From Phycisphaerae bacterium (GTDB lineage: Bacteria > Planctomycetota > Phycisphaerae > UBA1845 > PWPN01): DNA of 64,000 nucleotides. The notes beneath the pieces were generated by a model, which worked only from the letters and a program-made list of their open reading frames with translations, was not told where the DNA came from and ran no database searches. A program made the translations under genes and the position numbers. Positions 19-58,118 of the stretch are shown one piece after another; the first letter of the stretch is position 1; the number at the start of each line of letters is the position of its first letter. The DNA is taken from positions 3,319 through 67,318 of the forward strand of contig JAAYDF010000161.1 in the NCBI GenBank assembly GCA_012729395.1, in the 5' to 3' direction.

Positions 19-1206
19 CTACCCGCGCGTGGAGGACGCCGTTGACTCCGCGGGATCACGGATGACTTCCCGATAGAGGGTATCGCGCTCGACCGGGATG
101 CGACCGGCCTCGCGGATCATTCTGCGGATTCGGTCCACGGTGAGTTCCTGATGGGTGCCGCCGGCGGCGTTTTCGCGTCGGGTGATGTCGTAGTGCACGA
201 CCGTGCCGTCGAGGTCGTCCACGCCCCAGTCGAGGCTGACCTGGGCGAGCTTGGGACTCTGCATGATCCAGAATGCCTTGATGTGGGGCACGTTGTCCAG
301 CACGAGCCGGCTGATGGCCAACGTCTTGAGATCGTCGAGCCCCGTCGGGCCAGGCAGGTGGGCCAGGTCGCTGCCGTCGGGAATGAACGAAAGCGGGATG
401 AGGCAGTTGAAGTGGGCCGGCCTGCCCGCCAGCGACGCGTCTTGGTGCTCGCGCAGCTTGAGGAGGTGTCGCACGCGCTCCTCGGGCGACTCGACGTGGC
501 CGTAAAGCATGGTGGCGTTGCTGAAGATGCCCAGCTCGTGGGCGGTCCGGTGCACGTCGAACCAGCCCGCCTCCCCCACTTTGCTCTTGAAGGCTTCCTC
601 GTGAACGCGATCGTCGAAGATCTCGGCCCCGCCGCCCGGCAGACTGCCCAGCCCCGCTGCCCGCAAGCGCTCGAGAACCTCGCGGATGCTCAGACGCGGC
701 CGGCTGATCCGCGTGAAGTGGATGATCTCGATGGCGGTAAAAGCCTTGATGTGCAGGCCCGGGCACGCCTCCCGGATCGACCGGCACATCTCCTCGTAGT
801 AGGCGAACGGCAGCCGCGGATGTAGCCCGCCCACGATGTGCACTTCCGTGGCTCCGTGGTCCGCCGCCTCGCGGGCTTGAGTCACAACCTCATCCACCGT
901 CAGCTCGTACCCTCCCCTTGAGAAAGGGGTCAGAAGCCCTTTCGCTGGACGAGCACCGTCCGACGCCCCCGCGGCGACAAGGTTCCTGGCACCTTGTGCC
1001 GGGGCATACGGCCGAGCGAACGAGCAGAACCGACACCGCAGGACGCAGTAGTTCGTGTAGTTGATATGGCGATTGACGTTGTAGTAAACCCGCCGGCCGT
1101 GTAGTCGCTCCCGCACCAGATTGGCCAACTCGCCCAGTTGGTGGATGTCCGACGACTGGAACAACCGCACGCCGTCTTCGAGTGTCAGGCGTTCGCCCGC
1201 CCGCAC
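19..1206 (-). CDS. mqnE: Radical-SAM aminofutalosine synthase (MqnE/MqnC/CofH family; menaquinone via futalosine)
   Basis: Track ORF 19..1323(-). Motifs NYTNYC, the CVLRCRFC radical-SAM cluster, GGLHP, and a C-terminal ..RDTLYREV. MqnE is preferred over MqnC from memory of family patterns. The first 39 codons of the track ORF (..KWCQDDF..KNHPDT..) are only the translation of inverted-repeat element A, so I start at the in-frame GTG at 1204-1206 (VRAGERLTLEDG..). The gene carries a roughly 27-aa repeat-derived in-frame insert (see 920..1000). Confidence 0.8.
   Translation of the reverse strand: MRAGERLTLEDGVRLFQSSDIHQLGELANLVRERLHGRRVYYNVNRHINYTNYCVLRCRFCSFARPYAPAQGARNLVAAGASDGARPAKGLLTPFSRGGYELTVDEVVTQAREAADHGATEVHIVGGLHPRLPFAYYEEMCRSIREACPGLHIKAFTAIEIIHFTRISRPRLSIREVLERLRAAGLGSLPGGGAEIFDDRVHEEAFKSKVGEAGWFDVHRTAHELGIFSNATMLYGHVESPEERVRHLLKLREHQDASLAGRPAHFNCLIPLSFIPDGSDLAHLPGPTGLDDLKTLAISRLVLDNVPHIKAFWIMQSPKLAQVSLDWGVDDLDGTVVHYDITRRENAAGGTHQELTVDRIRRMIREAGRIPVERDTLYREVIRDPAESTASSTRG
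920..1000. repeat. Decayed copy (E) of the GGTGTCAGGA inverted-repeat element, embedded in-frame in mqnE
   Basis: Left arm gaaaggggtcagaagccctttc (922..943) and right arm acaaggttcctggcaccttgtg (977..998) resemble the arms of copy C (aaaggtgtcaggaaccttt / aaaggttcctgacaccttt). The loops share gct(c/g)gacga and cg(a/t)cgccc strings. It encodes ..YAPAQGARNLVAAGASDGARPAKGLLTPFSRG.. on the minus strand. Confidence 0.6.
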
Positions 1207-1226
1207 CTTGGCCGCAATCTCACCGC

Positions 1227-1304
1227 AAAGGGTGTCAGGATGATTTTTCTGGGGCCCGCAACCCCCGCTGGCGCCCCCGCAAAAATCATCCTGACACCAT
1301 TTTT
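1227..1304. repeat. Inverted-repeat (MITE/REP-like) element, copy A
   Basis: Perfect 18-bp arms ggtgtcaggatgattttt (1231..1248) and aaaaatcatcctgacacc (1281..1298) with a 32-nt GC-rich loop. It fills the spacer between the stop of 1304..2092 and the mqnE start. Confidence 0.85.
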
Positions 1305-2092
1305 CAGGCGAGCGACTGCACATGGGATAGGGCCTCCGCCAAACCTTCCAAGGGATCCTCGCGACCGCTGACCTCGAAGTCGATCACAAACCAACCATCG
1401 TACCCCGCGTGCCGGGCCTGCCGGAGTACGCCGCCTAGGTTTACCTCCCCCTGCCCCACGGGGACCGGCCGGTGGCCAATGCAATCACCTAGATGGACAC
1501 AGCCAACCAAGTCGCCGAACTCCGCCACAACATCCAGGGGGTTCACCGCCGACGCGTGAAACTGGGCGGCGTCCAACAAGACACGCACGTTCCCGGCCCG
1601 CGCCGCCTCCACCAAATACCGCAAATCCTCGATTTGCTCGATTCGCGTGCCGCGCCAGTTCGCCAAGTTCACAGACATTCCGAGCGGCCGTGCGGCCTCA
1701 GCCACCGCCGCGACCGCCCGAACCAGCACTTCCCGCCCTTGTTCTCCGCGATCGTACGCGAACAGATTGCAGCTCGCGCACCCCGTTTCAGCGATGCAGG
1801 CCAAGTGATCGCACAATGCCTTCGTCGCCGCGGGTTGATCCTCGCCATCGTCCACACCGACAAACTGTGGCAGGTTGATCCCGGTCAGCGCCAAGCTCTT
1901 GTCCGCGAGCAGGTCGCGCAGGCACCGACCTGGGTTGGCTTGGTCGGCGAATGCCCGCTCAACCTGCGACCAGTACAACTCAACACCCGCTGCCCCGGCT
2001 TGCCTGATGAACTCGAGCCCGCCGGCCAAAGGGAAGCTGCGGAGTACCTGGGCCATCAGCCCCCGTGTACTGCAAGCCAGTTTCGGCGTCAT
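1304..2092 (-). CDS. Sugar phosphate isomerase/epimerase (xylose isomerase-like TIM barrel)
   Basis: 262-aa ORF with the pattern of the AP-endonuclease-2 / xylose-isomerase-like TIM-barrel family (..AGVELYW.., ..CVHLGD.., GEVNLGGVLRQARHAGYDGWFVIDFE). Confidence 0.75.
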   Translation of the reverse strand: MTPKLACSTRGLMAQVLRSFPLAGGLEFIRQAGAAGVELYWSQVERAFADQANPGRCLRDLLADKSLALTGINLPQFVGVDDGEDQPAATKALCDHLACIAETGCASCNLFAYDRGEQGREVLVRAVAAVAEAARPLGMSVNLANWRGTRIEQIEDLRYLVEAARAGNVRVLLDAAQFHASAVNPLDVVAEFGDLVGCVHLGDCIGHRPVPVGQGEVNLGGVLRQARHAGYDGWFVIDFEVSGREDPLEGLAEALSHVQSLA

Positions 2093-7416: not shown

Positions 7417-7421
7417 TCTGA

Positions 7422-7502
7422 GAAAAGGGTGTCAGGATGAATTTTCAGCCGAGTGTCCTGGCGAGGGCGATCCCTGAAAAAATCATCCTGACACCATTTT
7501 TG
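7422..7502. repeat. Inverted-repeat element, copy B
   Basis: Arms ggtgtcaggatgaatttt (7428..7445) and aaaaaatcatcctgacacc (7477..7495) with a 31-nt loop. It lies in the divergent promoter region, and its right end abuts the GGAGGA SD (7502..7507) of the beta-helix gene. Confidence 0.85.
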
Positions 7503-13171: not shown

Positions 13172-13714
13172 TCAACTCTTACCCCCGCCCAGAATACCTG
13201 AGAGGTCCGGCCCGCTTGACTGGCCTGCCCCTTGCTTGGTTGGGTCGAATTTCGCCGCTTCCCGGATCAAGATCGCCTCGGTGGCGTTCATCCCTTTGCC
13301 GCTGGCCAGATCCTGGACCACTTCGATTCGGTCGGCATCGAGGCCCTCGGCCAGCAGAAAGGTCTTGACCTGCTCGATCCGACCGGCCGCCAGTTCGGGA
13401 GGATCGTCCATGCCGTCGTAGCGCAGCTTGCCGCCGTAGGCCTGTAGAACCGAGGCGTACCTCGCCAGTCGCCTCGCCCCCAGCGCGTTCAGGTCCGGCT
13501 GGTGCGGCACAAAGTGCACCGCCGACATGCTCATGTCTTCCAGCAGGGCATTGTCGACCATATAGGCGAACGTATCCTGCATCGGATGCGGACGCTCGCT
13601 GGAGCCCTGCGGCGGCGCGTTCAGCCGCTCAGGGGGATTCTGGCATGCCAGCCCGCCCCAAAGCACTACCGCCACCATCAACCCCATCATGGTCAGTCGC
13701 ATGATCTGCATCAT
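13172..13714 (-). CDS. Hypothetical lipoprotein (weak OmpA-C/CpaD-like pattern)
   Basis: 180 aa. A ggaagga SD lies upstream. Signal peptide + lipobox ..VVLWGGLAC. The segment ..VHFVPHQPDLNALGARRLARYASVL..RIEQVKTFLLAEGLDADRIEV.. resembles OmpA-C/CpaD-type lipoproteins, but this is a guess. It sits 31 bp upstream of the TPR lipoprotein gene on the same strand. Confidence 0.65.
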   Translation of the reverse strand: MMQIMRLTMMGLMVAVVLWGGLACQNPPERLNAPPQGSSERPHPMQDTFAYMVDNALLEDMSMSAVHFVPHQPDLNALGARRLARYASVLQAYGGKLRYDGMDDPPELAAGRIEQVKTFLLAEGLDADRIEVVQDLASGKGMNATEAILIREAAKFDPTKQGAGQSSGPDLSGILGGGKS

Positions 13715-13890
13715 GGATCGGTTCCTTCCGTCAATTACGGTGTTCCTCGATGTCCCCCCCCGCCAGTGTCGCGCTGAGGGTTATCGGCCAATCGAGGTCC
13801 GCAGTTTTGTATTTACCGGACAGAAGCGGAGATGTGCGGGGAAGGCTTGACCCAGCGGCCACATAACGAGACTGCCGGGGCGTTGATTAT

Positions 13891-42789: not shown

Positions 42790-42885
42790 CCAAAGGTGTC
42801 AGGAACCTTTATCGAGCGATGCGGCCTGCCGCTCGACGAACTGCGTTCTTGCGTCGCCCGAAAAAGGTTCCTGACACCTTTTTGG
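42790..42885. repeat. Inverted-repeat element, copy C (AAAGGTGTCAGGAACCTTT subtype)
   Basis: Perfect 19-bp arms aaaggtgtcaggaaccttt (42792..42810) and aaaggttcctgacaccttt (42863..42881) with a 52-nt loop. It lies between the convergent 3' ends of the ThuA and GH51 genes. Confidence 0.9.
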
Positions 42886-47836: not shown

Positions 47837-47958
47837 ATCGAAACCACAGATAAACACTGATGAAGGAATGCGATATCGATCATAGAACTTCCTGATTCCT
47901 CTTTGTGCCGTGTTTGACGCCGATTCCTTTCTTCATCCGTGTTCATCTGTGGTTTGAT
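47837..47958. repeat. AT-richer long inverted repeat (hairpin element) between convergent genes
   Basis: The cores aaaccacagataaacactgatgaag (47841..47865) and cttcatccgtgttcatctgtggttt (47931..47955) are complementary at 23/25 positions. The 65-nt loop is visibly AT-richer than its surroundings. It lies 13 nt after the pdxA stop. Confidence 0.8.
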
Positions 47959-55126: not shown

Positions 55127-55638
55127 GCGCTATCCTCCATTCCCAATCCAAACCCCGAAACGCCGCGCCAGGATAGCATGAACCGTCCGCGATTGGCACC
55201 ACGCACAACTCGCCGTTGAAACGCCGCCGCCGCCTCGCCCGTCGCCAACCGCAACCTTTCGCGAGTCGAACCGCCCAGGAGCACCGGTTGGAGCAGGATG
55301 GAAAAGGGATGAGTCCAATCACTGACGTGGCATCAACACCAACGATGTTGGCGCCTCTCGGCCACTCGTCACTGTAGCGTCCGAGGACCGCCTCTTCTTT
55401 GCCGGCCCAAGCGTTTTCTGCACGACTTAGCCGTCCGACGGCATGTCGGCGTCATCACGTCGGAACGGCATCAAGGCAAGAAAACGCCCCCCGCTTTCCG
55501 CCGGCCACTTACGCGAAATCGGCGTAACCTGCAGAGCCGCGACCATAAGGGAGCGGTCTTGGACTGCTTCCTCACGGCCGCGGCTCTGTGACCGCGCGAA
55601 CATGGGGCTGCAAAAAAGCGTTGCCTGCGGGCGTCCGG

Positions 55639-57857: not shown

Positions 57858-57883
57858 GGCAACCTCCACGCTTCTTCCCGGCA

Positions 57884-58006
57884 GAAAATGGTGTCAGGAT
57901 GATTTTTCGCTGAGTATAACCTTGTTCTGGATTTGCGTCCCTGCGCCCCCCAAGAATCAGCCTTCCTTTGCCTGCCCCGCAAAAATCATCCTGACACCTT
58001 TTTTCG
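57884..58006. repeat. Inverted-repeat element, copy D
   Basis: Perfect 18-bp arms ggtgtcaggatgattttt (57890..57907) and aaaaatcatcctgacacc (57981..57998) with a 73-nt loop. It lies between the ldh start and the stop of the 58119..61196 gene. Confidence 0.85.
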
Positions 58007-58118
58007 CCCAGAACCTCATGACAGCATGGGCGAACGAACACGGGCGGCTGGGGACTTGCGACCTCAGCCGCCCGTGAGGTATGCATCCATTTACAATCGC
58101 GGACCGCGCAATCCCGGC

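Follow-up and report, generated by a model that had tools for sequence, protein, structure and literature searches.

Probable REPIN-derived DNA read in frame within the variable loop of MqnE from a Phycisphaerae bacterium

Results

The mqnE gene and its lengthened loop

The window, by which we mean the whole 64,000-nucleotide stretch of DNA analyzed here, carries near its start an open reading frame (ORF) for the aminofutalosine synthase MqnE (Table 1). With respect to identity, the product scores 449 bits against the NCBIfam MqnE equivalog TIGR03700 (cutoff 434.55), contains the CX3CX2C motif, and yields an AlphaFold (AF2) model with a radical-SAM TIM barrel like that of solved MqnE, which matches structure 6XI9 (E = 1e-34, TMt 0.84). 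Its sequence agrees at 100% identity with P0001, a 'Phycisphaerae bacterium' protein from a metagenome-assembled genome (MAG); the protein accession in the source MAG is NLX21830.1. The CX3CX2C columns are invariant in an alignment of 120 sequences (A4), and the TIGR03700 match is split into two stretches, with the break at residues 105/136, that is, at the insert.

Table 1. Features of the window discussed in the text
Feature	Position	Strand	Evidence or remark
mqnE (aminofutalosine synthase) ORF hosting the insert	19..1323	-	434 aa; TIGR03700, AF2 model vs 6XI9
Variable loop, residues 106-137 (YAPAQGARNLVAAGASDGARPAKGLLTPFSRG)	913..1008	-	~27 residues more than MqnE elsewhere
Probable REPIN-derived DNA (decayed REP doublet), read in frame	920..1000	-	nhmmer profile, arm-pair statistics
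Arm of GGGGTCAGAAGCC variant (AAAGGGGTCAGAAGCCCTT)	923..941	+	15/19 to canonical arm AAAGGTGTCAGGAACCTTT
Opposite arm (CAAGGTTCCTGGCACCTTG), reverse complement of GGTGCCAGGAACC variant	978..996	+	16/19 to reverse complement of AAAGGTGTCAGGAACCTTT
Radical-SAM CX3CX2C codons (CVLRCRFC, residues 93-100)	1024..1047	-	Immediately upstream of insert
Intact REPIN, GATGATTTTT subtype, overlapping annotated mqnE 5' end	1224..1305		Inverted repeat I3
Intact REPIN, GATGA subtype, divergent intergenic region	7421..7502		Inverted-repeat and covariance-model evidence; L089 gene calls
Intact canonical REPIN between convergent genes	42792..42881		Arm mismatches 0/0; fold z = -9.0
Longer REPIN, GATGATTTTT subtype	57875..58013		Inverted repeat I2; arm mismatches 4 and 3

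The extra length of the window protein is evident from the spacing between its Cys motif and the TEVH segment. Of 59 diverse MqnE family representatives, 44 have a spacing of 29 residues and 56 have one of 26-34 residues; in the window protein the spacing is 56 residues, an excess of 27 aa or 81 nt. Where the window protein has ~30 residues, the solved Pedobacter heparinus MqnE (6XI9) has 4. The added segment, which includes the peptide string QGARNLVAAGASDGARPAK, is in frame and stop-free. The preliminary description of this DNA is borne out on all of these points: it had reported about 27 extra codons in an MqnE-like ORF, an insert of ~81 bp that is a multiple of 3, lacks a stop codon and keeps the frame, and a position beside the radical-SAM cluster loop.

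Two proteins of the alignment set show other peculiarities. A 548-aa MGnify protein in the P0001 cluster (P0122) follows MqnE to residue ~405 and then continues into unrelated C-terminal sequence; it probably derives from a chimeric contig. In P0075, 11 residues (GSRGTGVSPVV) are inserted at another internal position, A4 columns 315-325 (reference residue 206).

A family of paired inverted repeats

A REPIN consists of two inverted REP units joined by a short spacer. Four intact copies of one such family are found within the 64-kb window, at gene ends or in intergenic spacers. The REP unit of this family has the form AAAGGnGTCAGnnnCCTTT; the two ends of the canonical arm, AAAGGT-GTCAGGA-ACCTTT, are complementary to each other, and the GATGATTTTT subtype is without the inner palindrome. 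The copy at the 5' end of mqnE folds with z = -6.7 and scores 30.9 bits (E = 1.7e-5) with the covariance model R1. It covers mqnE codons 7-33 (EKWCQDDF...KNHPDTL), and none of the codons separating codon 1 from V40 is a start codon. At the equivalent spot contigs L081 and L082 have a GGGGTCAGAAGCC-type copy, and the copy in L032 lies in the intergenic spacer. The window also holds two repeats of unrelated sequence, an inverted repeat with 28-nt AT-rich arms (47841-47955) and a GAGCCGCGACC...GGCCGCGGCTC palindrome (55532-55588), which may belong to other families of the source genome. A search of the window with Rfam returned no family at the gathering threshold; the sole match below it, a spurious one to a miRNA precursor, fell on the intact copy.

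When metagenome contigs were scanned for an exact match to the arm 17-mer AAGGTGTCAGGAACCTT, more than 120 were recovered. The 17-mer is kept on contigs of 33% to 71% GC (L100-L219), which is unusually broad for a REP family. The arms hardly vary among 55 paired copies (42-135 bp), starting with (G)AAAAGG and finishing with CCTTTT(C), and on each strand two of the three frames through them contain no stop. The spacers, in contrast, range from a few to ~100 nt and are contig-specific, resembling one another only inside one contig or subfamily; a 69-bp subfamily was found again on unrelated contigs. The arms covary in L219 and L083, and the flanks of 54 copies show inverted rather than direct complementarity (e.g. 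tcaga...tctga). One 6.5-kb contig (L178, 1382-6168) carries five REPINs of 82-83 bp, ~0.8-1.4 kb apart, two of which directly flank a gene like that of a RAYT (REP-associated tyrosine transposase). No match to the consensus element was found among PLSDB plasmids.

Copies also lie in frame in two other genes, one for an SMP-30/gluconolactonase (SGL lactonase; L148, 2412-2480) and one for a GT4 glycosyltransferase, in the part encoding its N-domain (L177, 2214-2303). Most ORFs crossing copies in GC-rich contigs are spurious, and these two alone were accepted after Pfam checks. L177 has two further copies in the spacer ahead of the GT4 gene.

Relationship of the insert to the repeat family

The arms of the insert (Table 1) differ from the canonical arm at 4 and 3 positions. 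No pair of comparable quality in inverted order arose in 300 dinucleotide-shuffled versions of the window, and 1.33 Mb of DNA surrounding mqnE in other Phycisphaerae yielded two, both of them real elements. Each arm has a 13-nt core that recurs exactly elsewhere: the GGGGTCAGAAGCC core of 923..941 in the unrelated contigs L055 and L081, and the GGTGCCAGGAACC core of 978..996 in L100, L118, L148, L191 and L209, with the central 17 nt of the latter arm matched exactly in L100, L118 and L191. An nhmmer profile trained on six copies from foreign contigs aligned to 920..997 with 17.0 bits (E = 3e-4) over model positions 4-76 of 77, making this the second-best locus for that profile in the window. 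From these matches, the insert DNA can be assigned to the AAAGGTGTCAGGAACCTTT inverted-repeat family.

In terms of structure, the insert no longer resembles an intact copy. Its fold has z = -1.2, compared with -6.7 to -9.0 for intact copies; the long hairpin is lost, and both arms still fold locally as mini-hairpins. The arms represent different natural variants and agree with each other at only 13/19 positions by our own count. The structure-weighted model R1 gives the insert a low score (13.3 bits, E = 0.57) because its two arms no longer pair, and the sequence profile was used in its place. A hybrid origin, from two single REPs or by recombination between copies, is as possible as the decay of one doublet.

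The insert had been taken in the preliminary description for a decayed copy of the element at 42790..42885, with strings shared between their loops offered in support. The arm matches (15/19 and 16/19) uphold the relationship, but the interior similarity does not, as its local-alignment score of 15 is no better than that of shuffles (12.4 +/- 2.3, p = 0.16). Descent from the 42792..42881 copy in particular was therefore rejected, and we treat the insert as a member of the family rather than a demonstrable copy of that element.

A RAYT-like transposase

On contigs where two arms lie ~700 bp apart, the interval is an ORF of 224-227 aa with an HUH motif. Pfam Y1_Tnp matches this ORF (2e-16), and the best of the NCBIfam models is REP_Tyr_transpos (REP-associated tyrosine transposase), whose cutoff of 80 bits lies above the 55.4 bits obtained; the signatures NH[WF]H and Y[VI]ERN[PA] are both present. 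Ten full and seven partial transposase genes were found among 120 loci that had been fetched by the 17-mer alone, and nine of the ten full-length ORFs have one arm (X) upstream and its reverse complement (rcX) downstream. These arms either overlap the ends of the ORF or lie no more than ~125 nt away. Three of the ORFs (L129, 839-1571; L123, 1874-2622; L116, 119-835) end in ...KKGS*; in these, the downstream REP arm provides the final codons and the TGA stop, as it often does for the stop of such genes.

More than 8000 homologues of the transposase exist, some of them named REP-associated tyrosine transposase or transposase of Pirellulales, Lacipirellulaceae or Planctomycetota, and several named RAYT by JGI. 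The enzyme is apparently single-copy and widespread in Planctomycetota. Integron attC sites, uptake-sequence pairs and terminators had also been considered for the combination of conserved arms and variable interiors; they were dropped because a RAYT-like gene sits between the arms. Taken together, this gene arrangement identifies the family as a REP/REPIN family associated with a RAYT-like HUH/Y1 tyrosine transposase. There is no RAYT gene within the 64-kb window, so what is shown is an association with the repeat family rather than one within the source genome.

The MqnE loop across Phycisphaerae

The loop that holds the insert is the sole internal length-variable block in 120 MqnE orthologues, and over 182 distinct Phycisphaerae versions of the loop its length runs from 5 to 68 aa (median 28). 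The mqnE loop of L083 contains an intact in-frame copy belonging to the 69-bp subfamily. The profile gives this copy 85 bits, its identity to a consensus drawn from unrelated contigs is 91%, and its fold is a hairpin of -50 kcal/mol (z = -7.3). This copy supports in-frame palindromic insertion of the kind known from Rickettsia palindromic elements (RPEs), which had been suggested for the window insert from its sequence. A decayed full-length copy occupies the loop of L055 (15 bits), and the loops of L084-L088 and P0036 contain a GATGATTTTT-type arm, read as KRCQDDF. Loop copies among the relatives start 0-5 codons past a conserved R-P and vary in orientation, subtype and reading frame; from these differences, including those of position, we infer separate insertion events for the AAAGGTGTCAGGAACCTTT-family copies.

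Other repeats have reached the same loop. The palindrome GAGCCGCGGGCTTCAGCCCGCGCG is found in the loops of L001, L013 and L033 (twice), where in frame it reads KEPRASAR or AAGLSPRG, and is intergenic on six other contigs (L027 at 887-910, 2556-2583 and 13690-13717; L056; L070; L073; L152; L177 at 327-352). The L003 loop has a CACTGGCAG palindrome and the L008 loop a GAAAGYC tandem, so that at least three repeat types besides the AAAGGTGTCAGGAACCTTT family are hosted there, in different lineages. Judged by these sequences, the linker is a recurrent landing site for repeats. A recognisable repeat signature is present in ~12% of the 182 distinct loops, and the ~88% without one may be too decayed or of other origin.

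In L081, at 76% identity the closest relative, the loop is 26 aa long and shows no detectable homology to the insert, their global alignment being worse than that of shuffles; it does not represent an empty site. Many long Phycisphaerae loops, the window loop not among them, share a weak LP(L/V/I)(A/L)G-like motif (SLPLAG, LPVAGQ, LPIFGE). Part of the Phycisphaerae MqnE loop may be older and under some constraint.

State of the insert

A protein identical to the window MqnE is encoded on at least 15 independently assembled contigs from ENA and JGI assemblies. A sister strain (96% identical, second MAG) has a diverged version of the insert, in which the right arm is nearer to canonical than that of the window. 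Over the 32 insert/loop codons the two strains differ by 6 synonymous and 6 nonsynonymous changes and 1 codon deletion, as against 30 synonymous and 5 nonsynonymous changes over the 354 core codons. The enzyme is under purifying selection, and the insert appears nearly unconstrained.

The AlphaFold model has a mean pLDDT of 82.5, with block means of 69, 48, 38 and 59 and no secondary structure for loop residues 106-137. Residues 117-135, together with the element-encoded N-terminus, are below 50 and without secondary structure, a prediction consistent with a disordered surface loop. The extra length, the predicted disorder and the relaxed constraint of the insert can be read directly from these comparisons. 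With its unpaired arms, near-neutral change and predicted disorder, the insert is, so far as its sequence tells, old and decaying.

Discussion

Origin of the insert

We consider it very probable that a REPIN was inserted into the linker of MqnE. A copy of ~69-74 bp would have entered the DNA encoding the stretch from the CX3CX2C cluster-binding loop to the following helix, presumably through action of the family's HUH transposase on single-stranded DNA. Such action is established for E. coli TnpA-REP and has been proposed for REPINs (PMC3116915, PMC6006769). The insert would have survived because the frame was kept, because two of the three frames through the arms lack stops on either strand, and because the linker, a predicted disordered surface loop, tolerates added residues. 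It would then be translated as a passenger peptide without a function of its own. Its decay is seen in the loss of the flanking A/T runs and of arm complementarity, and in amino-acid changes that are almost free. Of this account, we infer the transposition mechanism, the translation and the neutrality of the insert. Independent colonisation of the loop in other Phycisphaerae, by the AAAGGTGTCAGGAACCTTT family and by other repeats, would account for the range of loop lengths.

A more far-reaching version of this proposal is one that we would sooner doubt than assert. It holds that the linker is a lineage-wide landing pad which at least four REP/REPIN families have entered independently, that insertion and decay are the main source of the 5-68 aa variation, and that a repeat family tied to a conserved, apparently single-copy transposase would in this way act as a standing generator of new disordered protein segments, possibly with active targeting of mqnE.

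Alternative explanations

Targeting in its own right is the most serious competitor, and we regard it as unlikely. According to this explanation, the transposase or a single-stranded DNA structure directs repeats to the site, or a resident REP attracts more of them. It draws on the presence of at least four repeat types in the MqnE loop of different lineages, on another group of copies, clustered where mqnE has its 5' end (in the window, L081 and L032), and on reports of REPs as insertion targets of IS elements (PMC3733652). However, the insertion points vary by 0-5 codons, with no common flanking motif seen, and clustering at the loop is predicted by selection alone because this is the protein's sole internal indel-tolerant site.

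It is improbable that the insert has been co-opted, so that the peptide beside the Fe-S cluster, or its RNA hairpins, serves partner binding, cluster protection or translational pausing. The insert does adjoin the cluster loop, is unchanged in at least 15 assemblies, and keeps a local mini-hairpin in each arm. A functional segment is nonetheless difficult to reconcile with predicted disorder, with near-neutral change and a codon deletion relative to a 96%-identical strain, with loops that are non-homologous and 5-68 aa long among relatives, and with the loss of the long hairpin.

Still less credible is growth of the loop by ordinary slippage or low-complexity drift, with a coincidental resemblance to the arms. 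Many relatives do have loops that look low-complexity and contain no recognisable repeat, and the L056 loop has an 18-bp tandem-like pattern. The arm-pair and profile statistics contradict this explanation: none of the 300 shuffles contained such a pair, the two found in 1.33 Mb of related DNA were both real elements, and the profile match is full-length (E = 3e-4). Moreover, the 13-nt core of each arm recurs unaltered in natural variants, and the right arm of the sister strain is closer still to canonical. Lastly, an assembly or annotation artefact, which might be suspected since the source is a metagenome-assembled genome, is refuted: independent assemblies from ENA and JGI have the identical protein on at least 15 contigs, and a second MAG has the diverged allele.

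Significance

Insertion of a REPIN into the MqnE linker, the explanation we favor, is new in some respects and familiar in others. The preliminary description gave in-frame colonisation as known from Rickettsia and was aware of no account of it for this family or lineage. In agreement with its second part, we found no literature description of the AAAGGTGTCAGGAACCTTT repeat family, its motif strings, or Phycisphaerae repeats of relevance, and the R. baltica repeats in PMC3733652 encode peptides different from those of the AAAGGTGTCAGGAACCTTT family. In-frame insertion by REPs, however, is already known beyond Rickettsia, since cases are catalogued in several phyla (PMC3733652). The new aspects are the repeat family itself, its setting in the phylum Planctomycetota (class Phycisphaerae), MqnE as its host, and how often one loop has been entered.

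The locus provides a clear case outside the Proteobacteria of a palindromic repeat within an essential enzyme that has not been destroyed by it, and one in which the transposase partner is identifiable. It also offers a natural time series at a single site, from the intact hairpin of L083 through the half-decayed copies of the window and L055 to the unrecognisable loops elsewhere. Such a series could be used to measure the rate at which selfish DNA becomes an ordinary protein loop and to test whether REPIN-RAYT systems shape proteomes. For annotation in Planctomycetota, inserts of this kind split profile matches and lengthen genes.

Comparison with known systems

RPEs (Ogata et al. 2000, summarised in PMC3733652 and PMC10969869) resemble the present case in that a palindromic repeat lies in frame in the gene of a housekeeping enzyme, is translated as an extra surface segment, and leaves the gene apparently functional. 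They are, however, ~100-150 bp long, have a CGTC tag and no known dedicated transposase, and belong to an alphaproteobacterial lineage. By these descriptions the AAAGGTGTCAGGAACCTTT family is set apart, with copies of 42-135 bp, a 69-bp core family, no CGTC end tag and a host in the Planctomycetota.

Bacterial MITEs with in-frame insertions, such as ERIC, BOX, Nezha and QMITE1 (reviewed in PMC10969869), are likewise small non-autonomous inverted-repeat elements able to make in-frame fusions, and terminal inverted repeats are present in both. Whereas MITEs derive from DDE-type IS elements and usually show direct target-site duplications, AAAGGTGTCAGGAACCTTT copies have inverted-complementary flanks and an HUH/Y1 protein as partner enzyme.

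REP and REPIN-RAYT systems have been treated by Nunvar in 2010 and by Ton-Hoang in 2012. With the systems described by Bertels & Rainey 2011 (PMC3116915) and surveyed in PMC3733652, the AAAGGTGTCAGGAACCTTT family shares a short hairpin unit, inverted doublets that form a long hairpin, many mostly intergenic copies, a single HUH/Y1 transposase gene flanked by inverted units (the REPtron architecture), and occasional copies inside ORFs. The occurrence of different REPs at about one site has a parallel in Xanthomonas recB (Di Nocera et al., PMC3733652). In contrast to the REP superfamilies, the ends of the AAAGGTGTCAGGAACCTTT family carry neither the GTAG nor the CGTC tetranucleotide, and the absence of such a tag at either end places it outside both superfamilies (PMC3733652). 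It differs further in the conservation of a 19-mer over contigs of 33-71% GC with contig-specific spacers, and in a transposase that, at 55 bits, is under the NCBIfam RAYT cutoff of 80. This arrangement fits the 'TIRYT/TIRtron' description (PMC3733652) better than that of canonical REPs, and the architecture of the family supports placing it in the broader REP/REPIN-RAYT kind.
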